This document shows positions 34,036 through 48,886 of a stretch of DNA of 64,000 bases, piece after piece. This DNA comes from Pseudomonadota bacterium (GTDB lineage Bacteria; Pseudomonadota; Gammaproteobacteria; Pseudomonadales; JADFDG01). The DNA lies in contig JBMOOO010000014.1 of the NCBI GenBank assembly GCA_049324475.1, positions 6,986 to 70,985 on the forward strand, given 5' to 3'. Position numbers and translations under genes: made by a program. The notes under the pieces are model-generated. The model saw only the letters and a list, made by a program, of their open reading frames with translations. It did no database searches and had not been told where the DNA came from. Each line of letters begins with the position of its first letter. The first letter of the stretch is position 1.

Positions 34036-35178
34036 ATGCCATCGCCTCTGGACCGCGCCACCGAACTGCTGGGTACCGGCCGCCGCTTCCTGCGCAATGC
34101 CGTGCAGCGGCGTGCCAACCCGCACAAGTTCATCGAGAACAACCTCACGCCGCACGGCGAGATCCTGCGTGACGGCCTGCTCACGGTCCGGCACTACCCG
34201 CGGCTGGCCAATCCTTCGATTGCAGTGGAGGGCACCACGGTCCCGGTCAGTGGCCGGCAGCACCGGCTGCCGCTGGTGCTGGTACCACCCCTGGGCGTGC
34301 ACGCCTGGGTGTTCGACCTGCTGCGCGAACGCAGCATGGTCCGCTACTTCCTGGCACGCGGTTTCGACGTCTACCTGATCGACTGGGGTGCGCCCGGTGC
34401 CAACGATCACGACCTCGCGCTCGACACGTACGTGAATCGCTGGTTCCCGCAGGCGCTGGCCGCCATCCGCCGGCACAGCGGCCGGGACGATCTGTCCCTG
34501 CTCGGCTACTGCATGGGCGGCCTGCTGTCGCTGATGTACCTGGCCGCCAGCGGCGATCGCCACGTACGCAATCTCGCCACCATCGCCAGCCCCATCGACA
34601 TCCACGCCGGCGGTACCCGCGGCCGCGTACTGGAGGCGATCAGCAAACCGGCCATGGCGGTGCACGAGCGGCTGGGCATCCGGCTGGATTTCTTCGCCAA
34701 CCGCCATCGTTTCCACGTACCCGGCTGGATGCTGGCACTGGCGTTCCGCGCCACCAATCCGCCCGGCACGGTACGCGCCTACATCGACATGGTGCGCAAC
34801 CTGGCCGACACCGAATACATCACCGAGTACATGAGCATGGGCCAGTGGTTCACGGACATGCCCTACTACCCCGGCGGCGTGGTGCAGGACATGGCGGAAA
34901 AATTCGCGATCGCCAACCGCATGGCCGGCGGTCACATGGTGATCGGCGAAGCCGAACTCGACTTCGCCCGCATCGACTGCAACCTGATTGCCCTTGCCGG
35001 CGACAACGACCGCATCGTCGGCGTGGATGCCGCCAGGAAAATCCTCGACATCGTCGGCAGCCACGACAAGCAGTTCCTGGTCGGCCCCGGCGGCCATGCC
35101 GGCGTGTTTGCCGGCAGCCGTGCACCGGCGGAGGTCTGGCAACCGATCGCCGACTGGCTCAGCCCGCGCTCGGACTGA
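34036..35178 (+). CDS. alpha/beta hydrolase resembling class III PHA synthase PhaC (Cys nucleophile)
   Basis: In-frame ATG at 34036. FDVYLIDWGAP and the lipase-box variant LLGYCMGG (G-x-C-x-G-G) match PhaC. Candidate Asp (GDNDRIV) and His (GGHAGVF) residues are present. About 380 aa. Confidence 0.6.
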   Translation: MPSPLDRATELLGTGRRFLRNAVQRRANPHKFIENNLTPHGEILRDGLLTVRHYPRLANPSIAVEGTTVPVSGRQHRLPLVLVPPLGVHAWVFDLLRERSMVRYFLARGFDVYLIDWGAPGANDHDLALDTYVNRWFPQALAAIRRHSGRDDLSLLGYCMGGLLSLMYLAASGDRHVRNLATIASPIDIHAGGTRGRVLEAISKPAMAVHERLGIRLDFFANRHRFHVPGWMLALAFRATNPPGTVRAYIDMVRNLADTEYITEYMSMGQWFTDMPYYPGGVVQDMAEKFAIANRMAGGHMVIGEAELDFARIDCNLIALAGDNDRIVGVDAARKILDIVGSHDKQFLVGPGGHAGVFAGSRAPAEVWQPIADWLSPRSD

Positions 35179-37531
35179 GCCCGTCGCCGAACAGGCGCAT
35201 CAGCAGGTCATCCAGGTCGCCGGCGCGTACCGGCTTCGGCAGGTGCGCATCCATGCCGGCGGCCAGGCATTCGGCGCGATGTTCCGGCAGGGCGTCCGCC
35301 GTCACCGCCACGATCGGCACCCGGCCGCGACGCCGGCGCGCTTCTTCCTCGCGCACGCGCCGGGTCGCCTCCATGCCGTCCAGGCCCGGCAGGTTGCGGT
35401 CCATGAACAGCACGTCGTAGTCGCGCGCGCAGGCATAACGCATGGCTTCCTCGCCGGTGGCGACCATGTCCACTTCCAGGCCACGCCGCTCCAGCAGCCC
35501 GCGCAACACCAGCTGGTTCACCGGATTGTCCTCGCACACCAGGGCACGCCGGCCACGCCAGTGGTTCTCCGGCACGCCGTCGCGCGCCTCGCCCGGCAAC
35601 TGCACCGGCTGCAGCGGCAAGGACACGGTGAAGGTGCTGCCTTCGCCGATCCGGCTTTCCAGCGTGATATCGCCACCCATCAGCCTCGCCAGATCGCGGG
35701 CAATCGTGAGCCCGAGACCGGTACCGCCCCGGCCGCGCGCACCGCGGCCTCCCACCTGGTGGAAACTGTCGAACACCGCCTGCTGTTGCCCCGCCGGAAT
35801 GCCGATGCCGGTATCACGCACACGCAACAGCAGGCGCCGGCCGTCCGAGGAGGACTGTGCCAGCAGCGTCACCGAACCGTGGTCGGTGAACTTGACGGCG
35901 TTGCTCACCAGATTGAGCAGCATCTGCCGCAGGCGGACCGGATCGATGCTGACGGCTGTCGGCAGACCGTCCTCGCAACGGCTGGACAGCTCCAGGCGGC
36001 GCTGGGTGGCGACACCGCGGAAAGTGTCGATCACGCTCGCCATCAACGGCCTCAGTGCCACCGGTTGCGGCCGCAGCTCCACACGACCCGCCTCGAGCTT
36101 GGCAGTGTCGAGCACATCGTCGATCACCGTCACCAGCGAGTCTGCCGACTCCTGGATCGTCCGCAGCATGTCCTGTTGCTGCCGGCTGAGCTCACTGTCG
36201 CGCAACAATTCCACCATGCCGACGATGCCGTTCATGGGCGTGCGGATCTCGTGACTCATGTGCGCCAGGAACTGCGACTTGGCCTCGGCCCTCGCCTGCG
36301 CCACCGAGGCATGCTTCAGGGCGCTGTCACGCTCGATGTTCACGGCACGGATGCGATAGGCCAGCGCGAATGACATCAGCACCACTTCCGCCACCTGCCC
36401 GAACTTGATCGCATTCAGGAACGCGGCCAGCGGCGGCAACAGACCGTGATTGGCCATGATGGTGACCGTGGCGCCGACCATGGTCGCGCCCCAGGCCACG
36501 TTGTAATAGAACGCCGGCCGGTGCCCCTGCAGCGCCACCAGCGCACCGGCCAGCACCACGGTGGGAATGGCCAGCATGATCAGCGTGTCGACCGCGATCA
36601 CCAGCTCGCGCCCGTAGAAGAAGCAGGTCAGCAGCGCAAACGCGGCATACAGGACGAGCAGGCCCTGCATCACCCGGTGCAGCCATGGCAGACGCTCGCG
36701 GGTTTCCAGGAACACCATGGCAAACCACAGGGTCGAGGACGCCGCCGCGTACACCGCGAACGGAAAGGCCCGGTGCTTGAGCCAGACGTTGTCGCCCAGC
36801 GGCAGGTAATGCCAGCCGTCCACCGTGAGCACACACAGGAAGATGCTCATGATGCTCACGCAGTAGGCGAGGTAGCTCTGGTCCCGGATGGTGAAGAACA
36901 GGAACAGGTTGTAGATGAACAGCGTGGCCACCACCGCGCCGTACAGCACCAGCAGCAGCAGCTCGCCCTGGCGCCAGCCGGCCAGCGACAACGGCGTGTC
37001 CACCCGCAGCGGCACCACCATCGAGGACTGCGACCAGGTGCGCAGGTAATAGGTGGCTTCGTCGCCGGGCGCGAGCGTGAGTGCGAACACCGGCTGCTGC
37101 ACATCAATCACGCGATGCACGGACGGCGCCATCCGGCCCTGCGGCAGGAAGACGTGCACGGCGCCGTTCTTCAGCTGGAACAGGCGCGCGTCGTCCAGCG
37201 TGGGCTCGGCCACCACCAGATACAGCGCCTGGGACGTGTCGGTGTCGTTGGCCAGGGTGAAACGCTGCCACCAGGCAGAACGGGAAATACCCGGTGCCAA
37301 CGGCTCGTCATGCAAACGACGGAAACGGCCGCCGGCATCCGCCTGGAGAACGTCCTTCAGCGTCATCGTGCCGGCCGGATCCTCCAGCACGGCAACAGCC
37401 GCCGGAGCGATTTCCGGTTGCATCATGAGCGACGACACGGAAAGCACGGCCACATCGGCACGCGCGGCGGCACCGGCCAGCAACAGACCGGCCAGCAACA
37501 TGCCCCACCCGCGCACCCGACTCGATGCCAT
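35159..37531 (-). CDS. 7TMR-DISM hybrid sensor histidine kinase (DISMED2 periplasmic domain, 7 TM, HisKA, HATPase_c, REC)
   Basis: Start at MASSRVRGWGMLLAGLLLAGAAARA (37531) within track ORF 35159-38044. A periplasmic domain is followed by seven hydrophobic helices. The H-box reads FLAHMSHEIRTPMNGI, with N/G boxes (NAVKFT, DTGIGI, GGTGLGL). The C-terminal receiver reads ALVCEDNP...LFMDRNLPGLDG...KP. Its last 20 nt overlap the convergent PhaC-like gene. Confidence 0.85.
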   Translation of the reverse strand: MASSRVRGWGMLLAGLLLAGAAARADVAVLSVSSLMMQPEIAPAAVAVLEDPAGTMTLKDVLQADAGGRFRRLHDEPLAPGISRSAWWQRFTLANDTDTSQALYLVVAEPTLDDARLFQLKNGAVHVFLPQGRMAPSVHRVIDVQQPVFALTLAPGDEATYYLRTWSQSSMVVPLRVDTPLSLAGWRQGELLLLVLYGAVVATLFIYNLFLFFTIRDQSYLAYCVSIMSIFLCVLTVDGWHYLPLGDNVWLKHRAFPFAVYAAASSTLWFAMVFLETRERLPWLHRVMQGLLVLYAAFALLTCFFYGRELVIAVDTLIMLAIPTVVLAGALVALQGHRPAFYYNVAWGATMVGATVTIMANHGLLPPLAAFLNAIKFGQVAEVVLMSFALAYRIRAVNIERDSALKHASVAQARAEAKSQFLAHMSHEIRTPMNGIVGMVELLRDSELSRQQQDMLRTIQESADSLVTVIDDVLDTAKLEAGRVELRPQPVALRPLMASVIDTFRGVATQRRLELSSRCEDGLPTAVSIDPVRLRQMLLNLVSNAVKFTDHGSVTLLAQSSSDGRRLLLRVRDTGIGIPAGQQQAVFDSFHQVGGRGARGRGGTGLGLTIARDLARLMGGDITLESRIGEGSTFTVSLPLQPVQLPGEARDGVPENHWRGRRALVCEDNPVNQLVLRGLLERRGLEVDMVATGEEAMRYACARDYDVLFMDRNLPGLDGMEATRRVREEEARRRRGRVPIVAVTADALPEHRAECLAAGMDAHLPKPVRAGDLDDLLMRLFGDGLSPSAG

Positions 37532-37702
37532 CACCGGCTCTCCCTGCACAGCGGCCGACAACCGGGCGGTGACATTCCCGCCCGGCCGGAGTCCGACTAT
37601 AGCGCGGCCCGGCCCGCCTTCGGGCCGCGGGCATGACGTGCTATGGTTCCGGCCCGCGCGCATGCCCATGACAACAACACCCGGAACCGTCGGAGACCTT
37701 CC

Positions 37703-38725
37703 ATGCGACCCCTGCGTCCGCTCGCTGCCACACTGAGTGCCCTCGCCCTCGTCCTTGCTGCCACCGCCGCCCAGGCCACGGACCTGACAAAACGGTCGGT
37801 CTGCGTGTTCGACATCGTCGGTACCCATGGCGACCTGTTCAACGCCATGAAGGATTTCCGGATCGAGGCCATGAAGTGGGGCGTCGATCTCGAACTGCGT
37901 CCGTACACCAACGAGAAGATCGCCGCCGAGGACTACAAGGCCGGCCAGTGCGATGCCGCGGTGATGACGGGTCTGCGTGCCCGCACTTTCCTGCCCTATG
38001 CCGGCACCATCGATTCGGTCGGCAGCGTGCCCGACGTCAACCACATGCGGCTGCTGATGCAGGCACTGGCCGACCCCAAGAGCGCACCGAAACTGCGCAA
38101 CGGCCCGTTCGAGGTGGCCGGCATTGCCCCGCTGGGTGCCGCCTACATCTTCACCCGTGACAAGGCCGTGAACAGCCTGACCAAGGCCTCCGGCAAACGC
38201 GTGGCCGTACTCGACTACGATCCGTCACAGGCACGCATGGTGGCGCAGGTCGGCGCCTCGCCGGTGCCCTCCGACATCACCAACTTCGCCGGCAAGTTCA
38301 ACAACGGCTCGGTCGACATCATCGGTGCACCGCTGGCCGCCTACAAACCGCTGGAACTCTGGAAAGGCCTGGAGCCGAACGGCGGCATCATCAACTACCC
38401 GTTCGTGATGCTGTCCATGCAGTTCCTGATCCGTCACGAGAAGTTCGCCGGGACGCCGGACTTCTCGCAGAAATCGCGCGAATATTTCTACGCAAACTTT
38501 GACCGCATCCTGTCTGCGCTGGACAAGGCCGCGCAGGAAGTCCCGCAGAAATACTTCGTCGAGATCCCCGCCACCGACAAGGTCAAGTACGAAGCGCTGA
38601 TGCGCGACGCCCGCGTCCAGCTGCGCAACGAGGGCTATTACAACGGCGACATGCTGACCCTGCTGCGCAAGGTGCGCTGCAAGGTCGACTCCGCGCGCGG
38701 CGAATGCACCGACAAACTCGAATAA
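37703..38725 (+). CDS. periplasmic solute-binding-like protein, paralog 1 (family not recognised)
   Basis: ATG at 37703 with GGAG upstream. Signal peptide MRPLRPLAATLSALALVLAATAAQA. It shares blocks with 44159-45184 and 45241-46302: CVFDI.G.HGD, AAEDYKAGQCDA, GKRVAVLDYDP, GASPVPSDITNFAGKFNNGSVDII and LLRKVRCKVDSARGECTDKLE. Confidence 0.8.
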   Translation: MRPLRPLAATLSALALVLAATAAQATDLTKRSVCVFDIVGTHGDLFNAMKDFRIEAMKWGVDLELRPYTNEKIAAEDYKAGQCDAAVMTGLRARTFLPYAGTIDSVGSVPDVNHMRLLMQALADPKSAPKLRNGPFEVAGIAPLGAAYIFTRDKAVNSLTKASGKRVAVLDYDPSQARMVAQVGASPVPSDITNFAGKFNNGSVDIIGAPLAAYKPLELWKGLEPNGGIINYPFVMLSMQFLIRHEKFAGTPDFSQKSREYFYANFDRILSALDKAAQEVPQKYFVEIPATDKVKYEALMRDARVQLRNEGYYNGDMLTLLRKVRCKVDSARGECTDKLE

Positions 38726-38729
38726 GGCC

Positions 38730-39935
38730 TTGAACGCAGGGCGCCACACAGCGCTGCAGGAACTGGCCGGAGTCCTGGCCGGTACTGCGGCGCTCTGGCG
38801 CCCGGCGCCGTTCCACGACGACCCGCCCTGGGTCGTCCGCTTTCCCGCCCTGCGCGACGCCCTGCTGGCGCTCGACGACGCCGGCATCGACGCCCTCGAA
38901 CACGATCCGCAGCAACTGGCCGACCGGATCGCGCAGCACATACCGGAATTTGCCGGCCTGATGCCTCCGGCACTGCGCTGCCTGGACAGTCGCGAAATCC
39001 CGCTGCCGCTGGATCTGCCGGAAAGCCTCGGCCGCGACGTGCCCGGCCGCAAATGGCAGCAGACGCTGCACTTTGCCGCCGCCTGCGGCAGGCCGCAGGG
39101 CACGGTACTGGACTGGTGCTGCGGCAAGGCACACCTGGGACGCGTGCTGGCACGGCACTACGGCAACGCGGTGAGCGGCATCGAACGCAACGGTGCGCTG
39201 TGTGCGGCCGGCCGCGCGCTTGCACAGCGCGAACACCTGCCGGTGCAGTTGCACCAGGCCGACGTGCTGCGGCATCCGCCCGTGGACGTGCTGCGCGACA
39301 GCATGCATGCCGTGGCATTGCACGCCTGCGGCTACCTGCATCTGGCGCTGCTGGAGCAGGCTGCCGCAGCCGGCGTGCCGGCACTCGATCTCGCGCCCTG
39401 CTGCTATCACCTCACCGCCGACGAAAACTGGCAGCCGCTCAGCCGCGCACTGGCCGGCACGGCCCTGACGCTCAGCCGCGCGGAGCTGCGACTGGCCGTG
39501 CACGAGACCGCCACCGCCAGCGCACGCGTGACAACGCAAAGCCGTCGCCTTGCCTCATGGCGGCTGGGTTTCGACCGGCTGCAACGTACCCTGCGCGGCA
39601 TCGACGAATACCTGCCCACGCCGTCACGGCCGGCCCGCGTGCTGCGCGACGGCTTTGCCGCGTTCTGCCGGGACCTGGCCGCCCACCACCGGATCGCCCT
39701 GCCCGCAGGCACGGACTTCACGCACTGGGAGAACACCGGCAGGCAGCGGCTGGCACGGGTACGGCGCCTGGAGCTGGTACGGCATGCCGTGCGCCGGCCG
39801 CTGGAAATCCTGCTGGTGACGGACCGGGCCCTGTGGCTGGAGGATCACGGCTACGAGGTCTCGCTCCGGCTGTTCTGCCCACCCGGGCTGACGCCGCGCA
39901 ACCTGCTGGTCCGGGCCCGCCGGTCCGCCGCCTGA
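38730..39935 (+). CDS. class I SAM-dependent methyltransferase-like protein
   Basis: TTG start 4 nt after the preceding stop. GRKWQQTLHFAA...VLDWCCGKAHLGRVLA...SGIERN resembles the motif-I region of a methyltransferase family that I recall carrying W-C-x-G-K-G-H-L-G. The antisense ORFs 38583-39539 and 38638-39384 are Arg/Ala shadows. Confidence 0.6.
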   Translation: MNAGRHTALQELAGVLAGTAALWRPAPFHDDPPWVVRFPALRDALLALDDAGIDALEHDPQQLADRIAQHIPEFAGLMPPALRCLDSREIPLPLDLPESLGRDVPGRKWQQTLHFAAACGRPQGTVLDWCCGKAHLGRVLARHYGNAVSGIERNGALCAAGRALAQREHLPVQLHQADVLRHPPVDVLRDSMHAVALHACGYLHLALLEQAAAAGVPALDLAPCCYHLTADENWQPLSRALAGTALTLSRAELRLAVHETATASARVTTQSRRLASWRLGFDRLQRTLRGIDEYLPTPSRPARVLRDGFAAFCRDLAAHHRIALPAGTDFTHWENTGRQRLARVRRLELVRHAVRRPLEILLVTDRALWLEDHGYEVSLRLFCPPGLTPRNLLVRARRSAA

Positions 39936-40004
39936 TGCACCGGCTCGCGGCTCCGTGTAAATTTGGAACGTTAGTGCCACATTAAAAGAACAACAGGAGT
40001 CCCG

Positions 40005-41429
40005 ATGGCATCCGAGCACCCCGCCCGACCGGAACACGACCCGGCCCGACGCCGCCTGCTGGCCACGTCCATGGCCGGGCTGGCCCTGACCGCTGCCGGC
40101 AGCACCCTGCTGCCGGGCACGGTGCGCGCCGACGGCGCCACGACAGCGGCCGGTGCTGCCGGCGCCCGCTGGCAGAACTGGTCGGGAGGCCAGTCGGTGC
40201 AGCCGTCCGCCATCTTCTATCCGCAGAACGAGGCGGATCTGGCGCGTATTGTGAAAACGGCGGTGCCGCCGATCCGGCCTTTCGGCGGCAGCCACTCCTT
40301 TGCACCGCTGGTGCCGACACCGGGCACGCTGGTGTCGCTGGAGCAGATGACCGCACTCACCGCCCACGATCCCCGGGCACTCACCGCCACCTTCACCGGC
40401 GGCACCCGCATCGCCGTGGCCGGTGAAATGCTGGCCGCCATCGGTCAGAACTTCTTCAACGAGCCGGACATCAATCTGCAGTCGCTGGCCGGCGCCGTCA
40501 GCACCGCCACCCACGGCACCGGGCTCGGCCTGCAGTGTCTTTCTGCCTACGTGACACAGATGAAGCTGGTGCTGGCCGACGGCAGCGTGGTCACCTGCTC
40601 GATGGACAGGGACCGCGAGCTGTTCGAGGCCGCCCGCGTTTCCATGGGCACCATCGGCATCATCGCGGAGCTGACCTTCCGCAACATGGCCGCCTACAAG
40701 CTGCGCGAGGAAACACAGGTGATGGACATCGCCGAGGCGATGCAGCACATCGAGCAGCGCAGGAACACGGACCGTCATATCGAGTTCTTTGCCTTCCCGT
40801 ACGGCGGCAAGGCCGTGGTCAAGCGCATGAACATCACCACCGAGGCCGACACGCCGCCGGTAGAGGAAACCATCGACCAGAACCAGGCGCTGGAAATGGC
40901 CGCCGACATCGTGAAGGCCGCGCCGTTCACCAAGGGCGTGATCCAGAAGATCGTCGGCGCCTTCATCAGTGACGAGGTGCGGGTGGCACCGGCGCATCGC
41001 ATGTTCCCCAGTCCGCGCACCGTGCAGTTCAACGAGATGGAGTACACGGTACCGGCGGACCAGGGCATTGCCTGCCTGCAGGAAGTGATCGACACCATGC
41101 GCGCGCGCGACCTGCCGGTATTCTTCCCGATCGAGTACCGGTACGTGGCGGCGGATGATATCTGGATGAGTCCGTTCGGCGGACGCGCCGGTGCGTCCAT
41201 TTCCATCCACCAGTACGCACGCCAGGATTACCGGGAAGTGTTCGACGCGGTCGAACCGATCCTGAAAAAATACGAAGGCCGGCCGCACTGGGGCAAGCTG
41301 AACACGCTGACGGCAAAAGACCTGCACGCGCGCTATCCGCGCTTCGGCGATTTCCTCGCCGTGCGGAAACGGGTCGATCCGCAGGGTCGTTTCCTCAACA
41401 CCTACATGAAGACGCTGTTCGGCGCCTGA
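40005..41429 (+). CDS. FAD-linked oxidase of the D-arabinono-1,4-lactone / L-gulonolactone oxidase (ALO) family with Tat signal
   Basis: The N-terminus has a twin-arginine motif and an h-region (RRRLLATSMAGLALTAAGS...VRADG). It has a PCMH-type FAD domain (GGSHSF, ISTATHGTG-like STATHGTG) and an ALO C-terminal signature (GRPHWGKLN). Confidence 0.8.
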   Translation: MASEHPARPEHDPARRRLLATSMAGLALTAAGSTLLPGTVRADGATTAAGAAGARWQNWSGGQSVQPSAIFYPQNEADLARIVKTAVPPIRPFGGSHSFAPLVPTPGTLVSLEQMTALTAHDPRALTATFTGGTRIAVAGEMLAAIGQNFFNEPDINLQSLAGAVSTATHGTGLGLQCLSAYVTQMKLVLADGSVVTCSMDRDRELFEAARVSMGTIGIIAELTFRNMAAYKLREETQVMDIAEAMQHIEQRRNTDRHIEFFAFPYGGKAVVKRMNITTEADTPPVEETIDQNQALEMAADIVKAAPFTKGVIQKIVGAFISDEVRVAPAHRMFPSPRTVQFNEMEYTVPADQGIACLQEVIDTMRARDLPVFFPIEYRYVAADDIWMSPFGGRAGASISIHQYARQDYREVFDAVEPILKKYEGRPHWGKLNTLTAKDLHARYPRFGDFLAVRKRVDPQGRFLNTYMKTLFGA

Positions 41430-41436
41430 GCCTGCC

Positions 41437-42750
41437 ATGAAGAGACGGAAAGTGCTGATCGGTGCCGCCGCCGCGGCCGGCGTGGCCGCCACCGGCTGGC
41501 TGCTGCGGCCGGAAGACCGTGGCGCACCCCACGACGCCTGGTTCCGCAGCCTGAACGACCTGCTGCGGGCACAGGGCCCCGGCCGGCCGGTGCTGGTCGT
41601 AGACCTGGACCGGCTGGAGCGCAATTGCGCCCGGCTGCAGGAGACCGCCGCCGGTCACGGCAAGAAACTGCGTATCGTCGCCAAGTCGCTGCCGTCCCTG
41701 CCCATGCTGCAGCATGTGCTGGCGCGCACCGGCAGCAACCGCCTGATGAGTTTTCACCAGCCGTTCCTGAGCGCACTGGCTGCACAGGCGCCGGCATCCG
41801 ACCTGCTGCTGGGCAAACCCATGCCGGTACGCGCGGCGGAAACCTTCTACCGCCGGCTGGGCAACCAGGGCGGATTCGATCCCTCGCGGCAACTGCAGTG
41901 GCTGGTCGACAGCCACGAGCGGCTGCAGCAGTACGCGCAGCTGGCACGCAGCCTGGGCACGAAAATGCAGGTGAACGTCGAGATCGATGTCGGCCTGCAC
42001 CGCGGCGGCCTCGCCGTGCCGGAACAGCTCGACCCGCTGCTGGCGACCATGGCTGCCGATCCCGATCACCTGGTGTTTTCCGGTTTCATGGGCTATGACG
42101 CCCACGTCGGCAAGGTGCCGTCGATCCTCGAAAGCCGCGACACCTCGCTGGCCAGGGCCAATGCGGTGTATCGCGGTTTCATGGCGCGCGCGCAGGCACT
42201 GCGACCGGCGCTGGATACCGCGACGCTGACCCTCAACGGGGCTGGCAGCCCGACCTTCCGCCTGCACGATGCGCAGTCGCCGCTGAACGAGATCTCGGTG
42301 GGCTCGGCGCTGGTGAAACCGTCCGATTTCGACCTGGAGCCGCTGGCGGATTTCGAACCGGCGGCGTTCATCGCCACACCCGTGCTCAAGGCCATGGATG
42401 GATTGCGCCTGCCCGGCAGCGACCTGATCGGCAATACCTGGGCCATGTGGGACCGCAATCGCCGCCGCACCTTTTTCATCTACGGCGGCAAGTGGATGGC
42501 GCATTTCGTATCGCCACCCGGGCTGGCCGACAACACGCTGTACGGCAGCAGTTCCAACCAGGCCATTGCCAACGCGTCGCCCGCCGTGGAACTCGCTGTC
42601 GACGACTACGTTTTCCTGCGTCCGACCCAGAGCGAAGCCGTGCTGCTGCAGTTCGGCGATCTCGTGGCCGTGCGTGGCACCGGTACACCGGAAGGTGCAC
42701 GCATCGAGGCCTGGTGGCCGGTGCTGGCGCCGGCCCACGAAACCGCGTGA
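41437..42750 (+). CDS. alanine-racemase-fold (fold-type III) PLP enzyme, DSD1/D-threonine-aldolase-like, with Tat-like N-terminus
   Basis: Starts 7 nt after the oxidase. The N-terminus is MKRRKVLIGAAAAAGVAATGWLL. VLVVDLDRLERNCARL...KLRIVAKS carries the candidate PLP lysine. Later motifs are EIDVGLHRGG and GFMGYDAH. Confidence 0.65.
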   Translation: MKRRKVLIGAAAAAGVAATGWLLRPEDRGAPHDAWFRSLNDLLRAQGPGRPVLVVDLDRLERNCARLQETAAGHGKKLRIVAKSLPSLPMLQHVLARTGSNRLMSFHQPFLSALAAQAPASDLLLGKPMPVRAAETFYRRLGNQGGFDPSRQLQWLVDSHERLQQYAQLARSLGTKMQVNVEIDVGLHRGGLAVPEQLDPLLATMAADPDHLVFSGFMGYDAHVGKVPSILESRDTSLARANAVYRGFMARAQALRPALDTATLTLNGAGSPTFRLHDAQSPLNEISVGSALVKPSDFDLEPLADFEPAAFIATPVLKAMDGLRLPGSDLIGNTWAMWDRNRRRTFFIYGGKWMAHFVSPPGLADNTLYGSSSNQAIANASPAVELAVDDYVFLRPTQSEAVLLQFGDLVAVRGTGTPEGARIEAWWPVLAPAHETA

Positions 42751-43745
42751 GTCACTGGCCGCTGTTCGAGCGCTTTCCGGCGCTGCAGGCCACGCTGGCC
42801 CCGCTGCCGTTGTGCGGGCTGCCAACGCCGGTGCAGGCCATGCCGGCCATTGCCGGCCATGCCTGGATCAAGCGCGACGATCTCACCCACCCGGAATACG
42901 GCGGCAACAAACTGCGCAAGCTGGAGTTCATTGCCGGCGAAATGCGTGCACGCGGAGCACGCCGCGTGTACACCTTCGGCGCCACCGGTACCAATGCCGG
43001 CGTGGCCGCCGCCATGGTCTGCAGACAGCTCGGCATTGCCTGCACCGTGCTGACCTTCGACCAGCCGGCATCGGCCACGGTGGCGAAAAACCGGCAACTG
43101 ATGGATCACTACGGCGCGCACCGCGTGCATACCGGTTCCCTGTTCGCCACGGCACTGGCCTGGTACGTGCACCCGCGGCGACTCGACCCGCACAGTTACT
43201 TCCTGTTCGCCGGCTGCTCCAACCCGGTCGCCACCTTCGGCCACGTCAACGCCGCCTTTGAACTGAAAACACAGATCGCACGCGGCGAATGCCCGGAACC
43301 GGAAGAGATCGTGGTCGCGGCCGGCAGCGCCGCCACGCTCGCCGGCCTCACCCTGGGCTGCCGGCTGGCCGGCCTGCGCAGCCGCGTGACCGGCATCCGG
43401 GTGGCACCGGCACGGGTCGGCCCTTTCGCGGCCTGCACACCGGGCGTGGTGACCGCCATGATGCGGCGCGCAGCGCAGACCCTCGCCCGGGCCTGCCCGG
43501 AGGAAACGCTGCCGCCATGGCCGGATGTGGAACTGCGCGACGACTGGTACGGGCCCGGTTACGGCGTCACCACGCCGGCCGCCGACCTGGCCATCGCCCG
43601 GGCCGCCGCCGCCGGCATTCCCCTGGAGCAGACCTACAGCGGCAAGGCGTTTGCCGCGTTCCTCGATCACCTCGACCGCACCCGCGGGCCGGTACTGTTC
43701 TGGAATACGTACAGCTCCCGGCCGTCGCCCGCGCTGCAGGACTGA
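42747..43745 (+). CDS. ACC deaminase / D-cysteine desulfhydrase-family (fold-type II) PLP enzyme
   Basis: The GTG start overlaps the upstream stop (GTGA). The hallmark motif is KRDDLTHPEYGGNKLRKLEF. No signal peptide. Confidence 0.75.
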   Translation: MSHWPLFERFPALQATLAPLPLCGLPTPVQAMPAIAGHAWIKRDDLTHPEYGGNKLRKLEFIAGEMRARGARRVYTFGATGTNAGVAAAMVCRQLGIACTVLTFDQPASATVAKNRQLMDHYGAHRVHTGSLFATALAWYVHPRRLDPHSYFLFAGCSNPVATFGHVNAAFELKTQIARGECPEPEEIVVAAGSAATLAGLTLGCRLAGLRSRVTGIRVAPARVGPFAACTPGVVTAMMRRAAQTLARACPEETLPPWPDVELRDDWYGPGYGVTTPAADLAIARAAAAGIPLEQTYSGKAFAAFLDHLDRTRGPVLFWNTYSSRPSPALQD

Positions 43746-43816: not shown

Positions 43817-43996
43817 ATGGAATTCGTACTGGCAGACCTGTTCGGCTCCCTGGGCGGCCTGCTCACGCTCTTCATCGTCCTGTTCTGCATCGCCGCCATC
43901 CCGGCAGGCATTTACTTCGCGATGAAGAATGCCGTGCAGCTGTCCGCCGAACAGGACCGCATCAACGCGGAGAAGCACCGGCGGCAGGCACCCTGA
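43817..43996 (+). CDS. small single-TM membrane protein (59 aa)
   Basis: ATG at 43817 preceded by GGAGGG. One hydrophobic helix (LGGLLTLFIVLFCIAAIPAGIYF) and a basic tail. Confidence 0.45.
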   Translation: MEFVLADLFGSLGGLLTLFIVLFCIAAIPAGIYFAMKNAVQLSAEQDRINAEKHRRQAP

Positions 43997-44158: not shown

Positions 44159-45184
44159 ATGCGTCTGTTCGCCCTGCCAGCTCTCCTGCTGTCCGCCCTG
44201 CTGTTCTCCACCGGCTCCGGTGCCGCGGACCAGCAGGTACCCGCCAATGTGGTCAAGCGGAAGTTCTGCGTGTTCGATATCGCCGGCGCGCACGGTGACA
44301 TCTACCGCACCATGCAGGACTACCGGCTGGAGATGCTCAAGCACGGGGTCGATTTCGAGCTGGTGCCCTACACCAGCGAGAAGATTGCCGCCGAGGACTT
44401 CAAGGCCGGCCTGTGCGATGCCGCCGACCTGACCTCGTTCCGTATCCGCAACTTCATCAAGTTTGCCGGCACTGTCGACGCGGTCGGCGCACTGCCGACC
44501 CGCGAGCACGTACGCCTGGCACTGCAGGCCCTGGCCCATCCCAGCATGGCGCCGAAGCTGAAGAGCGGCCCGTATGAGATCGCCGGCATCGTGCCGATCG
44601 GCGCGGCCTACGTGTTCAGCCGCGACCGCCGCATCGACACCATCACCAAGGCTGCCGGCAAGCGCGTGGCCGTACTCGACTACGACCCGGAGATGGCAAA
44701 GATGGTGTCGCGCCTCGGCGCCTCGCCGGTGCCCTCCGACATCACCAACTTCGCCGGCAAATTCAACAACGGTTCGGTCGACATCATCGTGGCACCGATC
44801 GCTGCCTACAAACCCCTGGAACTGTACAAGGGCCTGGAGCCGAGCGGCGGCATCATCGATTTCCCCTTCACCCAGCTCTCCGCCATGGTGATCGTGCGCA
44901 GCGAGAAATTCCCGCCGGACATGCTGCAGTTCGCCCGCGAGGAAATCTTCCGCAACCTCGACCGCATCTACGAAATTGTCGACCGCATGGGCACCGATGT
45001 GCCGAAGAAGTACTGGGTCCCGATTCCGGAAGCGGACAAGGGCAAGTATGAAATCCTGATGCGCGACACCCGCATCCAGCTGCGCGAAACCGGCTACTAC
45101 GACGGCGAGGCCCTGACCCTGCTGCGCAAGGTGCGCTGCAAGGTCGAGCCGGCCCGCGCGGAGTGCACCGACAAGACCGAGTAG
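44159..45184 (+). CDS. periplasmic solute-binding-like protein, paralog 2
   Basis: 341 aa. Signal peptide MRLFALPALLLSALLFSTGSGA. It has the same conserved blocks as 37703-38725, including a 73-nt stretch differing at only 2 positions. Confidence 0.8.
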   Translation: MRLFALPALLLSALLFSTGSGAADQQVPANVVKRKFCVFDIAGAHGDIYRTMQDYRLEMLKHGVDFELVPYTSEKIAAEDFKAGLCDAADLTSFRIRNFIKFAGTVDAVGALPTREHVRLALQALAHPSMAPKLKSGPYEIAGIVPIGAAYVFSRDRRIDTITKAAGKRVAVLDYDPEMAKMVSRLGASPVPSDITNFAGKFNNGSVDIIVAPIAAYKPLELYKGLEPSGGIIDFPFTQLSAMVIVRSEKFPPDMLQFAREEIFRNLDRIYEIVDRMGTDVPKKYWVPIPEADKGKYEILMRDTRIQLRETGYYDGEALTLLRKVRCKVEPARAECTDKTE

Positions 45185-45240
45185 GCACCCCATCCCGGAA
45201 ATCCTTTCCGGAATCCCGAAACGGCCACTGGAGAACAACA

Positions 45241-46302
45241 ATGAAAAGACTGCTGGCTGCCCTTGCCCTGACCGCGTTTGCCACCACGGCGGGCGCGGCC
45301 GACATCAAGGCCGAAGACTTCATCTCTGCACCCGGCGTGAAAGCGCCGGCCCCGGTCAGCGGCCCTCCGCTCAAACGCAAGGTCTGTGTCTGGGACATCG
45401 CCGGTGCCAACGGTGACCTGTTCCGGACCATGGCCGACCTGCGCATCGGCATCCTGCGCTACGGCATCGACCTGGAGCTGCTGCCCTACACCAGCGAGCG
45501 GGTCGCCGCCGAGGACTTCAAGGCCGGCCAGTGCGATGCGGTCAACCTGATGACACTGCGTGCGCGGAACTTCATCAAGTTCTCCGGATCCCTGGATGCG
45601 ATCGGCGCCCTGCCGACCCGCGAGCACCTGCGCCTGGCCCTGACCGCACTGGCCGATCCGCGCATGGCTCCGAAGCTGAAAAGCGGCCCGTATGAAGTGG
45701 CCGCGTTCATCCCGATCGGCGCGGCCTACATCTTCACCAATGACCGCAGCGTGACGTCGATCGCCAAGGCCTCGGGCAAACGCATCGCCGTGCTCGACTA
45801 CGATCCGACCATGTCGAAGATGATCGCCGGTATCGGCGCCTCACCGGTGCCTTCCGACGTCACCAACTTCGCCGGCAAGTTCAACAACGGCTCGGTCGAC
45901 ATCATTGCCGCGCCGCTGGCCGCCTACAGCCCGTTCGAGCTGTACAAGGGGCTGGAACCGCGCGGAGGGATCGTCGATTTCCCGTTCACCCAGCTGACCG
46001 CGCAGGTGCTGGTGCGCAGCGACAAGTTCCCGGCCGAGATGCTGCAGTACTCGCGCACGGTGGTGGCCCGCCACTTTGAGTCGACCATGGAAATCGTGGA
46101 CGCGATGTCCGGCGAAATTCCGGCCAAGTACTGGATCAAGATCCCGAAGACCGACCAACTGCGCTATGAGCTGATGATGCGGGAAGCCCGCGTCCAGCTG
46201 CGCGAGGAAGGCTATTACGACGGCGACATGCTGGCCCTGCTGCGCAAGATCCGCTGCAAGCTGGATTCCGGCCGCGGCGAGTGCACCGACAAGCAGGAGT
46301 AA
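45241..46302 (+). CDS. periplasmic solute-binding-like protein, paralog 3
   Basis: ATG at 45241 preceded by GGAG. Signal peptide MKRLLAALALTAFATTAGA. It has the same conserved blocks and ends LLRKIRCKLDSGRGECTDKQE. Confidence 0.8.
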   Translation: MKRLLAALALTAFATTAGAADIKAEDFISAPGVKAPAPVSGPPLKRKVCVWDIAGANGDLFRTMADLRIGILRYGIDLELLPYTSERVAAEDFKAGQCDAVNLMTLRARNFIKFSGSLDAIGALPTREHLRLALTALADPRMAPKLKSGPYEVAAFIPIGAAYIFTNDRSVTSIAKASGKRIAVLDYDPTMSKMIAGIGASPVPSDVTNFAGKFNNGSVDIIAAPLAAYSPFELYKGLEPRGGIVDFPFTQLTAQVLVRSDKFPAEMLQYSRTVVARHFESTMEIVDAMSGEIPAKYWIKIPKTDQLRYELMMREARVQLREEGYYDGDMLALLRKIRCKLDSGRGECTDKQE

Positions 46303-46386: not shown

Positions 46387-47358
46387 CTACCGTTTTTTCT
46401 TGCCGTGCAGCGGAATCACGTCGACCGGATGATCGGCGGAACGGCCGACATGCTTGTGGATGAAACGACCGATCTCGCGCACCGCCTCCTTGCCTTCCGG
46501 GATGAAATACGCCAGCGCCTGGAACACGTGCATCATGCCCGGATACACCGTCAGCTTGACCGGAATGCGCGCCTTCTTCGCCGCCGCCTCGACCCGTTCG
46601 GCATCCGACAACAGCACTTCGTTGCCGCCCACCTGGATCAGCAACGGCGGAAATCCGCTGTAGTCGCCGTAGATCGGCGACAGGAACGGATCGTGCGGCG
46701 AATGCTCGCCGGCATAGACCCGCGCCAGGAATTTCAGCACATTCACCGGAATGTAGGGCTCGTGGCGTGCGTTCTCCCGCAGCGAATCACCGGTGGCGGT
46801 GAGATCGGCCCAGGGTGAAATCAGCACGGCACCGGCCGGCAGCGGCAGGCCCAGCTCGCGGAATTTCAGCATGGACACCAGCGTCAGGTTGCCGCCGGCG
46901 CTGTCGCCGCCGATGAAGATGTTCTGCGGCTCGTAGCCGCGGGCCAGCAGCCAGCGATACACACGCACCACGTCCCAGATCGGTGCCGGGTATTCGTGGT
47001 CCGGCGGCTGCCGGTAATCCACCGCCAGCACTTTCATGCGGCCGGCCTGGGAGATGCGCCAGGTCAGCGTGCGGTGCGAACGCGGCGAACCGAAGAAATA
47101 GCCACCGCCATGCAGATAGATGAACACGCGATCCTGGTGCAGTTCGTCCGCACACACCACCCATTCGCAGGGCACGTCGCCGGCGTGTACGGGAATGATC
47201 TCGGCATTGCGCGGCACCGGCAGCACCATGGTCAGGGCATCAAACCCGAGCTGCGAGAATTTCATCAGGCGCGGCGTGAACTTCACCCGCGCGATCACCG
47301 GTTTCACGAAAGTACGCGCGGCCAGGTTCAGGGCCTGCGCCTGCCAGCTGGTGGTCAT
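46387..47358 (-). CDS. alpha/beta hydrolase, hormone-sensitive-lipase-type esterase/lipase
   Basis: Oxyanion motif YLHGGGYFFGSP and nucleophile GGDSAGGN. I prefer the ATG at 47358 (GGAG 8-11 nt upstream) to the track start at 47391. Confidence 0.8.
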   Translation of the reverse strand: MTTSWQAQALNLAARTFVKPVIARVKFTPRLMKFSQLGFDALTMVLPVPRNAEIIPVHAGDVPCEWVVCADELHQDRVFIYLHGGGYFFGSPRSHRTLTWRISQAGRMKVLAVDYRQPPDHEYPAPIWDVVRVYRWLLARGYEPQNIFIGGDSAGGNLTLVSMLKFRELGLPLPAGAVLISPWADLTATGDSLRENARHEPYIPVNVLKFLARVYAGEHSPHDPFLSPIYGDYSGFPPLLIQVGGNEVLLSDAERVEAAAKKARIPVKLTVYPGMMHVFQALAYFIPEGKEAVREIGRFIHKHVGRSADHPVDVIPLHGKKKR

Positions 47359-47412
47359 CCGGTCTGCTCCGTGTTCTTGTTGTTCTGGCATGAGGGTCCG
47401 CCACCGGCGAGT

Positions 47413-48735: not shown

Positions 48736-48786
48736 CGGTACCTCTGCAGGGCGGCGGAAACGGGCACGTTGACCGCAGTCTGCCAT

Positions 48787-48873: not shown

Positions 48874-48886
48874 ATAACGCGGATCA

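Follow-up and report, generated by a model that had tools for sequence, protein, structure and literature searches.

Organization of the locus

In the 64-kb stretch of DNA analysed here (the window), three genes follow one another closely on the forward strand. Gene 1 (40005–41429; 474 aa), which encodes an oxidase, starts with ATG and has AGGAG 5 nt upstream. Gene 2 (41437–42750; 437 aa, ATG start) encodes a fold-type-III PLP enzyme, and gene 3 (42747–43745; 332 aa, GTG start) a fold-type-II PLP enzyme. The stop codon of gene 1 is separated from the start of gene 2 by 7 nt (41430–41436), and the junction of genes 2 and 3 is GTGA, where the GTG (42747–42749) overlaps the TGA (42748–42750). The GC3 values of these ORFs, 0.83–0.86 in a window of 66% GC, indicate that they are the coding frames. 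The boundaries, spacing, overlap and tight coupling given in the original prediction all agree with the ORF coordinates, and the families it assigned to the three products were correct by their Pfam and TIGR profile scores (see below).

The pairing of the first two genes is widespread: in 72 of the 80 genomes compared, from many genera, the oxidase gene is the immediate 5′ neighbour of the PLP gene. The distance from the oxidase stop to the PLP start has a median of 9 nt; among 56 loci it does not exceed 30 nt in 42, and the two genes overlap in 20. This pairing exceeds chance.

A palindrome, TGGAAC-GTTA-GTGCCA (39964–39979, forward strand), occurs 25 nt 5′ of the oxidase ATG. No other match to TGGNACNNNNGTNCCA occurs in the window, where 0.07 would be expected, and the motif was found once per locus, always just 5′ of the oxidase gene, in 13 of the 92 fetched loci, including those of Alcanivorax and Kangiella and loci L006 and L086. 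The palindrome is a candidate operator of the trio operon. A sigma-54 reading was ruled out, the GG-GC spacing being wrong.

Directly 5′ of the trio lie genes for an AdeT-like solute-binding protein (37643–38725) and a Methyltransf_32 protein (38730–39935), both identified with Pfam and both on the forward strand. They are possibly co-transcribed with the trio, but this order was seen only in the close relatives L006 and L086, while a TetR gene takes their place in the trio loci of other lineages; their membership in the functional unit is uncertain.

Gene 1 encodes a putatively exported oxidase

The gene 1 product matched Pfam ALO (3.3e-62) and FAD_binding_4 (1.7e-20), as well as TIGR01679 (446 bits against a cutoff of 292), and contains the motifs RRRLLATSMAGLALTAAGS and GRPHWGKLN quoted in the original prediction. 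Its best solved structures were the glycerol/alditol oxidase 8ot8 (3e-48) and AldO of Streptomyces coelicolor (2vfr; 4e-36), whereas sugar-lactone oxidases and dehydrogenases matched more weakly (1e-27). The protein is an SphC-like flavoprotein of the VAO/ALO superfamily, and the earlier label of a sugar-lactone-type oxidase should give way to a closer kinship with the alditol/glycerol oxidases, which oxidise primary alcohols. With both structures it shares the VAO-type FAD domain, the ALO cap domain, the covalent-FAD histidine (GGSHSF) and the substrate-site residues equivalent to Glu320, Arg322, His343 and Lys375 of AldO; these residues suggest that a primary alcohol adjoining a polar group is oxidised. 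The likeness to 8ot8, a thermostable enzyme, is moderate, and Thr345, Ser106 and Ala105 of AldO are replaced by Tyr, Asp and Pro, respectively. AldO, a cytoplasmic enzyme, has soluble polyols as its substrates, whereas gene 1 carries a predicted Tat signal peptide of 42 residues (40005–40130, forward strand).

This signal combines the motif RRRLL with 23 consecutive uncharged residues and a signal-peptidase-type site, V-R-A↓D, at which cleavage would occur; the family domain begins at residue 56. The signal matches the TatP regular expression RR.[FGAVML][LITMVF], its hydrophobicity lies within the span of Tat signals validated in P. aeruginosa, and the homologues bear (S/D/N)RRxFLK-type motifs, all of which bears out the Tat signal originally proposed.

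At the oxygen gatekeeper position, whose role in flavoenzymes is documented (PMC11099136, PMC3371188), gene 1 has Pro154 and not Ala. Among oxidases linked to a cytochrome c gene, this position is A in 33, S in 5 and P in 3, most being from Pseudomonas, while the unlinked oxidases have P in 22, G in 4, A in 4 and S in 1; neither count is corrected for phylogeny. All eight oxidases linked to a gene 3-type gene carry Pro. This residue suggests a true O2-using oxidase. Since there is also no cytochrome c (CxxCH) gene in the 64-kb window, gene 1 would, judging from this correlation, probably be reoxidised by O2 with formation of H2O2 and not through an SphB-type cytochrome. However, AldO is an oxidase although its gatekeeper is Ala, which cuts against this reading.

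Gene 2 encodes a PLP enzyme with a twin-arginine N-terminus

The gene 2 product matched Pfam Ala_racemase_N (2.7e-19) and, distantly, the BhcC profile (50 bits against a cutoff of 690). Its AF2 model (pLDDT 92.4) gave as top Foldseek matches D-threonine aldolases, the beta-hydroxyaspartate aldolase BhcC, D-threo-3-hydroxyaspartate dehydratase and chicken D-serine dehydratase, at TM 0.6–0.78 and about 20% identity. These matches sustain the proposed DSD1/D-threonine-aldolase type, within which the SphD-like protein belongs to a distinct subfamily. With the D-threonine aldolases (7yqa, 7dib, 4v15) and BhcC (6qkb) it shares the fold-type-III barrel, the C-terminal beta domain and the PLP lysine, K83 (AKSLP), which is invariant across the family alignments. 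It differs in that the Pfam C-terminal D-serine dehydratase domain was undetected and that the DSD1 metal ligands H-x-C/D are seemingly replaced, in a weak alignment, by Q-S/T-E, so its aldolase chemistry could differ.

The N-terminus (MKRRKVLIGAAAAAGVAATGWLL; 41437–41508, forward strand) is of the twin-arginine type and contains the originally quoted motif MKRRKVLIGAAAAAGVAATG; a conserved RPxDxGxPH segment follows. Neither element is known in characterised DSD1 enzymes. Two alignments, of 25 and 79 sequences, show R3 and R4 without exception; the family RR motif, conserved in 77 of 80 genomes, is encoded by all six Arg codons, and the TatP expression matched 118 of 120 and 77 of 77 family members, with uncharged runs of 14–20 residues. 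Given the retention of RR under synonymous codon variation, the start is not mis-called, which was one refutation envisaged earlier; rather, start-codon calls have removed this N-terminus from 43 of 120 Pseudomonas database entries of the SphD family. In the AF2 model, residues 2–22 form a lone helix, and residues 23–40 are packed on the domain. A near-universal twin-arginine N-terminus in the SphD family, as these sequences indicate, is a new observation, and our literature search found no description of a Tat-targeted PLP enzyme. Precedents for a periplasmic fold-type-III PLP enzyme are the broad-spectrum amino-acid racemases (Bsr; Vibrio BsrV, P. putida Alr), which carry Sec signal peptides and have free amino acids as their substrates for racemisation, in contrast to the twin-arginine-type signal and DSD1-like fold of gene 2.

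Gene 3 encodes a recurrent third enzyme

The gene 3 product matched Pfam PALP (6.4e-34) and TIGR01275 (131 bits against a cutoff of 289), and it fell far short of all curated cutoffs. Its best structures were Salmonella D-cysteine desulfhydrase (1.8e-28) and a Pyrococcus ACC-deaminase homologue. It resembles the DcyD/ACC deaminase family (4d8t, 1j0a, 1rqx) in the fold-type-II PLP fold, in length, in the PLP lysine within GGNKLRKLEF and in having no signal peptide; as originally stated, none was predicted, nor was one found in 120 homologues. Thus the family and the motif given earlier stand, but the protein is not an ACC deaminase: besides the missed cutoffs, Y-S-G-K replaces the Y-E-G-K that holds the ACC-deaminase Glu, and T-N-A replaces the DcyD S-N-H with its His. 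Gene 3 represents a divergent, uncharacterised subfamily that is D-cysteine-desulfhydrase-like.

Unlike DcyD and the ACC deaminases, gene 3 is genomically tied to a periplasmic oxidase. It adjoins the oxidase-PLP pair in 8 of 81 loci (80 GTDB loci and the window), and homologues follow the pair in the independent metagenome loci L089 and L090, each with the order TetR, oxidase, PLP enzyme, gene 3 homologue. The third gene overlaps the PLP gene in the window and in L089. At least 29 of the best 120 homologues share a contig with an SphD-like match. A signal-less DcyD-like enzyme is a recurrent third gene of the oxidase-PLP operon, which is a new observation.

Relation to sphBCD and proposed reactions

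In Pseudomonas loci, the order is cytochrome c (125 aa, CxxCH, lipoprotein-like), ALO oxidase and fold-III PLP enzyme. Gene 1 and gene 2 are, over their full lengths, 42% (E 4e-118) and 50% (E 2e-150) identical to the respective partners in the P. koreensis operon. The Pseudomonas oxidase signals, e.g., MPIDLTRRQLLQRASIVGAFSALASNPAL, are a near match to the published SphC signal MPSHLSRRQLLQRAGALGAFAAMVGNPALA; on this match and on operon architecture, we equate these loci with sphBCD (PA5328–PA5326 in P. aeruginosa), which encodes the cytochrome c SphB, the Tat-exported flavin oxidoreductase SphC and the threonine-aldolase-like PLP enzyme SphD. In P. aeruginosa, sphC and sphD serve in the detoxification of sphingosine, a lipid of the host. 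The sphBCD genes belong to the sphingosine/SphR regulon, and a two-step route was proposed for them in 2014, in which C1 oxidation is followed by aldol cleavage to glycine and a fatty aldehyde; this route is unproven (PMC3900636). P. aeruginosa SphC was shown by experiment to be periplasmic with Tat-dependent export (PMC6085387). sphBC is required for the depletion of sphingosine, sphinganine and phytosphingosine, while sphD was dispensable in a growth assay, the authors leaving open a direct action of SphB/SphC on sphingosine (PMC11893366). sphBCD is thus characterised genetically, not biochemically, and no SphC or SphD product has been identified.

The trio shares with sphBCD the two enzyme families, their order and tight coupling, the oxidase Tat signal and the RR N-terminus of the PLP enzyme. 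Accordingly, the original remark that the combination was not a recognised pathway does not hold, as genes 1 and 2 match this operon, which is known from its genetics. The differences are that the trio has no sphB gene, that no AraC (SphR) or SphA gene lies nearby, that the gatekeeper is Pro instead of the Ala of the Pseudomonas oxidase, that the DcyD-like gene is added, that the 5′ palindrome is absent from the Pseudomonas loci, and that the host is an environmental MAG and not a pathogen. We consider it somewhat better than an even chance (about 55%) that the trio is a cytochrome-independent variant of the Pseudomonas sphCD module with an added, apparently cytoplasmic PLP deaminase-type enzyme. 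At 40–50% identity and with SphB, SphR and SphA missing, the substrate need not be the one used in Pseudomonas; the authors themselves doubted that a Caulobacter SphC of 42% identity is an orthologue (PMC11893366).

In such a module, gene 1 would be exported folded, with covalent FAD in place, through the Tat pathway, the route shown for its P. aeruginosa homologue. Its periplasmic substrate may be a long-chain 2-amino-1,3-diol such as a sphingoid base or a related amino alcohol, whose primary alcohol at C1 it would convert to an aldehyde or an acid; substrate and site are suggested by the closeness to alditol oxidases together with the published sphBCD genetics. Gene 2, presumably targeted outward by its twin-arginine N-terminus and either released or left membrane-tethered, would break the C2–C3 bond by PLP-dependent retro-aldol cleavage, yielding a fatty aldehyde together with glycine (or aminoacetaldehyde). 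By the CIP rules, D-erythro-sphingosine oxidised at C1 is a (2R,3R) acid and an analogue of D-allo-threonine, and this stereochemistry is, from what is known of the family, accepted by D-threonine-aldolase-type enzymes; the DSD1 family is specific for D-configured beta-hydroxy-alpha-amino acids, as a C1-oxidised sphingoid base would be. The weakest step concerns gene 3. As its family beta-eliminates or deaminates D-amino acids, the presumably cytoplasmic enzyme would most likely act on an oxidised intermediate that has been imported, a D-amino acid with a beta-hydroxy group, and release a 2-oxo acid and ammonia. The need for an import step, given a periplasmic product, speaks against this scheme.

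Alternative interpretations

The substrate might instead be small and polar. Gene 1 would then oxidise an amino-polyol, amino sugar or alditol (e.g., serinol, glucosamine or glucosaminitol) to a periplasmic hydroxy-amino acid, followed by DSD1-like cleavage or dehydration, capture of the products by the adjacent solute-binding proteins and cytoplasmic DcyD-like deamination. This is essentially the original guess of periplasmic processing of D- or hydroxy-amino compounds completed by a cytoplasmic deaminase, which comes close to the proposed sphBCD-type chemistry, itself resting on an inferred substrate. Xylitol, sorbitol and glycerol are the substrates of the closest solved oxidases, the characterised DSD1-family enzymes all take small substrates (such as D-Thr, D-Ser and 3-hydroxyaspartate), and a related DSD1-family member is reported to contribute to the breakdown of D-glucosaminate within an oxidative chitin pathway (PMC9537276). 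Three AdeT/TRAP-like solute-binding proteins also flank the trio in the window and would suit such a substrate better than a lipid. These proteins are, however, lineage-restricted, the trio recurring elsewhere with TetR, ACBP or patatin genes as neighbours (the latter two in L090), and the surroundings of the trio contain neither a sugar kinase nor a permease nor a TRAP membrane subunit. Moreover, the sole genetics on the oxidase-PLP pair points to sphingoid bases, and a fatty aldehyde agrees better with the aldehyde dehydrogenase gene found beside the operon in 18 loci, as expected for an aldehyde product, and with the lipid-type genes in the window (esterase, P450, PhyH, FadR-like regulator, acyltransferase, START and patatin). 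We regard a small polar substrate as unlikely.

Relative to the sphCD-like module, two further readings concern localization and membership. The N-terminus of gene 2 could be an uncleaved signal-anchor (Rieske-type, Tat- or Sec/YidC-inserted), keeping the PLP domain attached to the inner membrane on its periplasmic side, the place to which a lipid substrate would partition; this would refine the preferred explanation, with membrane side and chemistry unchanged, and would not assign another function. Neither a clear polar c-region nor an AxA site was found in this N-terminus, and the uncharged stretch (mode 16–17 residues) abuts the invariant L-[RK]-P-x-D-x-G-x-P-[HY] segment, which packs on the domain in the model (pLDDT 94–98). 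The P. aeruginosa Rieske protein, a known uncleaved Tat anchor, is a precedent, and SphD (PA5326) is missing from the published P. aeruginosa Tat candidate and validated lists that we examined, the latter having used cleavage-site predictors. On the other hand, cleavage just before [WL][WL]L[RK]P is possible, since 135 and 122 of 164 N-termini have A/G at the would-be −1 and −3 positions, respectively, and a stable transmembrane helix would usually be longer than 16–17 residues rich in Ala and Gly. An anchor is a tentative reading, though a better one than a small polar substrate. Far less probable is that gene 3 is a functionally unlinked neighbour, or that the gene 2 N-terminus is a cytoplasmic extension with only the oxidase exported. 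Gene 3 is indeed missing from most loci (the pair occurs without it in 72 of 80 genomes), and close homologues also sit by themselves in a housekeeping neighbourhood (L091) or at another place on the contig (L087); nevertheless, in unrelated settings and lineages it again lies directly 3′ of the pair, in some cases with an overlap of the PLP gene, and in L092 such a gene directly follows a Tat oxidase alone. As for the extension, the Pfam TAT_signal and TIGR01409 models recognise only 5 and 3 of 25 SphD-family N-termini, respectively, but RR, the positive-inside charge and the uncharged stretch are kept, under synonymous variation, across gamma- and betaproteobacteria.

Structure of the three genes

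The GC content of the window is 66%, and the coding frames were marked out by the GC content at each codon position. Three co-oriented ORFs are found on the forward strand: gene 1 (40005–41429, 474 aa), which starts with ATG and has AGGAG 5 nt upstream; gene 2 (41437–42750, 437 aa), which also starts with ATG; and gene 3 (42747–43745, 332 aa), which starts with GTG. Genes 1 and 2 are separated by a 7-nt gap, and genes 2 and 3 share a GTGA overlap. These positions and junctions are exactly those of the original prediction. Five metagenome contigs encode an identical gene 2 protein, and the genes called on them independently likewise give products of 474, 437 and 332 aa. The broad family calls were equally sound: gene 1 carries FAD_binding_4 and ALO domains, gene 2 an alanine-racemase-type barrel, and gene 3 a PALP fold. 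The trio is real and its anatomy had been described accurately. Two narrower labels, "sugar-lactone oxidase" for gene 1 and "ACC deaminase" for gene 3, had to be dropped on the basis of family cutoffs and key residues.

Relationship of the gene 1–gene 2 pair to sphBCD

The pair formed by genes 1 and 2 is part of a known, genetically studied system. In P. aeruginosa, the sphBCD operon lies within the sphingosine-responsive SphR regulon and encodes a predicted cytochrome c (SphB), a predicted flavin oxidoreductase (SphC) and a predicted PLP threonine-aldolase-like enzyme (SphD) (PMC3900636). [quoted passage not shown] SphC is periplasmic and Tat-dependent, its start codon was formerly mis-annotated, and its experimentally validated Tat signal is MPSHLSRRQLLQRAGALGAFAAMVGNPALA (PMC6085387).

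A database search with gene 2 gave thousands of relatives of 420–440 aa, and a scan of one genome per species provided 80 loci, from Alcanivorax, Pseudomonas, Variovorax, Colwellia, Kangiella, Solimonas, Nevskiaceae and others. A gene 1 homologue is located directly upstream of the PLP gene, on the same strand, in 72 of the 80. From the oxidase stop codon to the PLP enzyme start codon, the median distance is 9 nt; in 20 of the 56 measurable cases, the two genes overlap. Thus, the oxidase and the PLP enzyme genes form a conserved unit.

A 125-aa lipoprotein-like monohaem cytochrome c is encoded ahead of the pair in the Pseudomonas loci. When compared with the proteins of one such operon, that of P. 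koreensis (L059), used in place of the PA5326 and PA5327 sequences, gene 1 showed 42% identity (E 4e-118) and gene 2 showed 50% identity (E 2e-150), both over the full length. The signal of the L059 oxidase, MPIDLTRRQLLQRASIVGAFSALASNPAL, is almost identical to the published SphC signal, and a near-match is also found in the oxidases of other Pseudomonas loci. The operon architecture and this signal peptide indicate that the Pseudomonas loci are orthologous to sphBCD; since the window proteins are full-length homologues of those of L059, genes 1 and 2 were classified as SphC-like and SphD-like, respectively. P. aeruginosa SphD was not among the 120 closer Pseudomonas clusters in a database search with the P. 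pseudonitroreducens orthologue.

The locus resembles sphBCD in that a Tat-signal VAO/ALO gene lies directly upstream of a DSD1-like fold-type-III PLP gene, here with the 7-nt gap, whereas it differs in that no sphB-type monohaem cytochrome c gene heads the operon. It is a variant of the sphBCD-type system that is devoid of the cytochrome, has Pro at the gatekeeper position of the oxidase, and carries an extra DcyD-like enzyme and its own upstream motif. No AraC-family gene adjoins the trio in the window. The original prediction was to fall if the trio matched a characterised catabolic operon; such a match holds by half, the pair being known genetically and not biochemically.

The oxidase and its electron acceptor

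Gene 1 passes the TIGR01679 cutoff (446.1 bits against 292.25). The identities of a sugar-1,4-lactone oxidase (TIGR01678; 194.8 bits against 396.8) and of GalDH (74.8 bits against 458) were rejected, both scores being below the cutoffs. The nearest solved structures are 8ot8 (3e-48), an alditol/glycerol oxidase (PMC10771423), and AldO (2vfr, 4e-36), with the galactonolactone dehydrogenases behind them (1e-27). In the alignment with AldO, GGSHSF of gene 1 faces GSGHSF, EYRYV faces EIRTV, IHQY faces AHFT, and RPHWGK faces RPHWGK; the covalent-FAD His is kept in 72 of 72 family members. The Glu, Arg, His and Lys of the AldO substrate site have conserved counterparts in the gene 1 protein. The closeness to alditol oxidases, the conserved FAD His and the AldO-type site together favour the oxidation of a primary alcohol beside a polar group, and such a reaction would fit C1 of a 2-amino-1,3-diol.

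Tat signals were identified by two features: the pattern RR.[FGAVML][LITMVF], located no further in than residue 35, and after it at least 13 uncharged residues of moderate hydrophobicity. The N-terminus of the oxidase carries RRRLL, an uncharged run of 23 residues with a Kyte–Doolittle mean of 1.33, and V-R-A|D, which on visual inspection fits a signal peptidase site of the A-x-A type. The TatP motif is present, and the hydrophobicity is in line with that of validated P. aeruginosa Tat signals. The gene 1 protein is therefore predicted to be exported by Tat, by analogy with P. aeruginosa SphC, the one protein of this kind whose Tat dependence is known (PMC6085387).

A cytochrome c gene is located upstream of the oxidase gene in 40–41 of the 80 loci, and it is absent from the window, from its close relatives L006 and L086, and from the Alcanivorax loci. 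Moreover, no ORF with CxxCH in a coding frame occurs anywhere in the 64-kb window, and no linked cytochrome c was thus found elsewhere in it. In GalDH, the gatekeeper Ala bars the access of O2, and Gly at this position restores oxidase activity (PMC11099136); the equivalents are Ala105 in AldO and Gly101 in HotAldO (PMC3371188). Alignment to GalDH and its A113G variant identified Pro154 as the gatekeeper residue of gene 1. Among the 72 family members counted, the cytochrome-c-linked oxidases have Ala (33), Ser (5) or Pro (3), while the unlinked oxidases have Pro (22), Gly (4), Ala (4) or Ser (1), including the ACCD-linked subset, in which all 8 have Pro. For the association between the residue and the cytochrome linkage, Fisher's test gives p = 2e-8, uncorrected for phylogeny. 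From these patterns we infer a true oxidase in the window and, in Pseudomonas, a transfer of electrons from SphC to SphB. Pro at the gatekeeper is said, in work by Leferink et al. in 2009, to act like Gly. However, AldO is an oxidase although its gatekeeper is Ala, which is a caveat to this reading.

Fold and chemistry of the PLP enzyme

Apart from the N-terminal barrel, the sole family match of gene 2 is a distant one to BhcC; the curated BhcC equivalog (NF045642) was rejected, with 50.4 bits against a cutoff of 690 over the N-terminal barrel only. The AlphaFold model, built on 79 homologues (pLDDT 92.4), consists of a fold-type-III barrel and a C-terminal beta domain, and the PLP lysine, K83 in AKSLP, is invariant. 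The top 21 Foldseek matches of this model are all DSD1-family proteins (TM 0.6–0.78, about 20% identity). They include D-threonine aldolases, BhcC, D-threo-3-hydroxyaspartate dehydratase and D-serine dehydratase, enzymes that act on D-configured beta-hydroxy-alpha-amino acids. The Pfam D-serine dehydratase C-terminal domain was not detected in the SphD family, even at E ≤ 10. In a weak HMMER domain alignment, the metal-ligand segment PGHCD of BhcC faces PTQSE in gene 2 and PTQTE in the Pseudomonas relatives, and the His-x-Cys/Asp metal ligands of the family thus appear to be replaced by Gln-Ser/Thr-Glu, which is a caveat to an aldolase role of gene 2.

The stereochemistry of the putative substrate can be followed by the CIP rules. 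D-erythro-sphingosine is (2S,3R), and the conversion of C1 to a carboxylate swaps the priorities at C2, so that the acid is (2R,3R), a long-chain analogue of D-allo-threonine. D-threonine aldolases cleave D-allo-threonine. This fit, which we derive from the rules, supports the proposed aldolase role of gene 2.

Twin-arginine N-terminus of gene 2

The N-terminus of gene 2 might have been an artefact of a mis-called start codon. This is ruled out, and the predicted start is right: the twin-arginine N-terminus is kept in 77 of the 80 genomes as M-x(1–3)-R-R-x-[FLIV]-[LIV], 16–20 uncharged residues, and L-[RK]-P-x-D-x-G-x-P-[HY]. R3 and R4 do not vary in either alignment, and all six Arg codons are used for them, which means that selection acts on the protein. 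The TatP motif was found in 118 of 120 and in 77 of 77 family members. In the window protein, RRKVL is followed by an uncharged run of 18 residues (Kyte–Doolittle mean 1.89), which compares well with the validated P. aeruginosa signals. Tat HMMs gave weak support, with the Pfam model matching 5 and the TIGR model matching 3 of 25 members, the window protein not among them.

In the model of gene 2, residues 2–22 form a lone helix and residues 23–40 are packed on the domain. The candidate −1/−3 positions, at the end of the h-region, are mostly Ala or Gly, while a polar c-region is lacking; for this reason, the protein could be either a cleaved passenger or an uncleaved, Rieske-like anchored one.

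The database entries provide a clue to why this feature has escaped attention. Among 120 Pseudomonas SphD-like entries, 43 (P0256–P0301 and others) are 402-aa calls that begin with MRP, at the leucine of WLRP (mostly CTG), and thereby lose the twin-arginine segment; calls of 425–427 aa for the same genes also exist. Both calls of one gene are found on the same 6,244,007-bp contig of Pseudomonas sp. TCU-HL1 (P0255 and P0298). The shorter calls look like the erroneous ones, in a systematic start-codon error that resembles the proven one of SphC. This twin-arginine N-terminus, which makes SphD look like an exported PLP enzyme, belongs to the SphD family at large and has probably gone unnoticed, likely because many annotations start the gene 23 codons late. 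Such gene calls conceal it, and the list of Tat substrates published for P. aeruginosa does not contain it. The location of SphD is not mentioned in the sph papers. In the accessible parts of the P. aeruginosa Tat-substrate lists, neither PA5326 nor the candidate PA14 tags (whose mapping is unconfirmed) appear, and this counts as weak evidence. Our literature search found no description of a Tat-targeted PLP enzyme.

The third gene

Gene 3 scores best against the D-cysteine desulfhydrase/ACC deaminase group and misses every cutoff. ACC deaminase was rejected: TIGR01274 gives 53.4 bits against 392, and gene 3 has Y-S-G-K where the Pseudomonas ACC deaminase has Y-E-G-K, the Glu of this Tyr-Glu pair being needed for ring opening. 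DcyD was also rejected, with 120.5 bits against 429 for the equivalog, 130.7 against 289.4 for TIGR01275, and T-N-A in place of S-N-H of Salmonella DcyD. The PLP lysine motif is kept. Given the residue changes and the missed cutoffs, gene 3 represents an uncharacterised subfamily that is nearer to DcyD than to ACC deaminase.

In 8 of 81 loci (the 80 GTDB loci and the window), a gene 3-like gene comes after the pair. One also comes after it in L086, whose synteny is that of the window, and in two unrelated metagenome contexts (L089 and L090), where the order is TetR–oxidase–PLP–ACCD. For at least 29 of the 120 best gene 3 homologues, the longest contig is equal in size to that of one of the 120 best SphD-like matches, and most of these contigs are shorter than 20 kb. 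In another locus, L092 (6621–9023), an ACCD/DcyD-like gene begins 6 nt after the gene for an ALO oxidase whose Tat signal (RRRAFLKSVLAAPLVASC) ends in a lipobox-like sequence, and no fold-type-III PLP gene is present at this pair, which suggests that a DcyD-like enzyme can partner the oxidase directly. A second PALP gene, a hexapeptide transferase gene and radical-SAM genes are also located nearby in L092. There are counter-examples: a gene 3 homologue stands alone among housekeeping genes in L091, and one is non-adjacent in L087.

The family is known for the alpha,beta-elimination and deamination of D-amino acids that bear a leaving group at the beta carbon. On this basis, the gene 3 protein may dehydrate and deaminate an oxidised intermediate imported into the cytoplasm, which is the least secure step of the proposed pathway. 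No signal peptide was found in any of 120 gene 3 homologues, which puts gene 3 in a different compartment from its two predicted exported partners. As an alternative to the cytoplasmic role, the product might be exported as a Tat "hitchhiker" with its twin-arginine-bearing partners.

Genomic neighbourhood and the proposed substrate

Upstream of the trio are a 7TMR-DISM hybrid histidine kinase gene (35159–38044, −), a gene for an AdeT-like (TRAP-type) solute-binding protein (37643–38725, +), and one for a Methyltransf_32 protein of 401 aa (38730–39935, +). Two further AdeT-like genes (44159–45184 and 45163–46302, both +) lie downstream, making three paralogues in all, and no TRAP membrane subunits are encoded near the trio. 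The solute-binding protein and methyltransferase genes accompany the trio only in the close relatives L006 and L086.

Two lipid-type clusters are present in the window: one (46387–50388) encodes an HSL-family esterase, a P450, a PhyH-family dioxygenase and a FadR-like GntR regulator, and the other (56311–60389) encodes a PlsC-type acyltransferase, a START-domain protein, a patatin-like lipase and a family III CoA-transferase. In L090, ACBP and patatin genes adjoin the trio. In 18 loci of the P. fluorescens group and Variovorax (L028, L035, L044, L051, L052, L059 and 12 others), a gene for an aldehyde dehydrogenase of 540–550 aa, mostly divergent, lies beside the cytochrome c–oxidase–PLP operon, about 3.5 kb upstream of the PLP gene. 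This neighbour fits a fatty-aldehyde product and, like the lipid-type genes of the window and the ACBP and patatin genes of L090, fits lipid metabolism. An AraC-family regulator gene occurs in 27 loci, and a gene for a protein of about 660 aa, outer-membrane-like by eye, in 17.

From the homology to sphBCD, the stereochemical fit and the genomic context, we put the chance that the substrates are sphingoid bases or similar long-chain amino alcohols at about even. The main rival is that the enzymes act on small polar amino-polyols. A further-reaching reading is more tentative, with a probability of about 0.3. According to this reading, SphD would be the first family of Tat-targeted PLP enzymes, loaded with its cofactor in the cytoplasm, exported folded, acting in the periplasm as a released or membrane-tethered aldolase, and overlooked through late start calls. 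The window would specify an O2-dependent, cytochrome-free breakdown of sphingoid bases, with gene 3 encoding a cytoplasmic D-beta-hydroxy-amino-acid dehydratase or a Tat hitchhiker.

For the bacterial destruction of antimicrobial sphingoid bases, sphBCD provides a genetic anchor, but the biochemistry awaits a solution: no product has ever been identified, and the direct action on sphingosine is unproven. If the above reading is true, the window oxidase could be assayed without a cytochrome partner and could reveal the reaction product of SphC; the enzymology should be easier to reconstitute with such natural variants because they probably need only O2. The recurrent DcyD-like gene may complete the pathway. 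Since the module is widespread, being found in Alcanivorax, Moraxellaceae, Pseudomonas, Variovorax and many uncultured Proteobacteria, environmental bacteria may commonly turn over long-chain amino alcohols, and this ability would then not be a speciality of pathogens.

Upstream motif and other features

Scans of the stretch at 37.4–46.5 kb for promoters and terminators gave no information, with no promoter-like sites detected and terminator-like sites fewer than in shuffled sequences. A 59-aa ORF (43817–43996, +) without a family match lies in the 414-nt gap between gene 3 and the next solute-binding protein gene; it is called by the source annotations, as in L001, L002 and L004. Upstream of the trio, a stand-alone gene (33376–33939, −) encodes a 187-aa HNH endonuclease that weakly matches the HNH modules of IscB and Cas9d, and this gene is found at the same place in L086.

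The palindrome TGGAAC-GTTA-GTGCCA (39964–39979) lies 25 nt before the start codon of the oxidase gene and has no second copy in the window, where 0.07 occurrences are expected. A sigma-54 reading of TGGnAC...GTnCCA was rejected, the GG-to-GC spacing being one base short and the palindrome being perfect in relatives. The motif occurs once, at the same position, in 13 of the 92 related loci, including seven of Alcanivoracaceae and Kangiella. Its consensus is ATGGTAC-N4-GTGCCAAT, with an A-rich stretch after it, and the motif is a candidate operator that resembles those of the GntR type (GT...AC).
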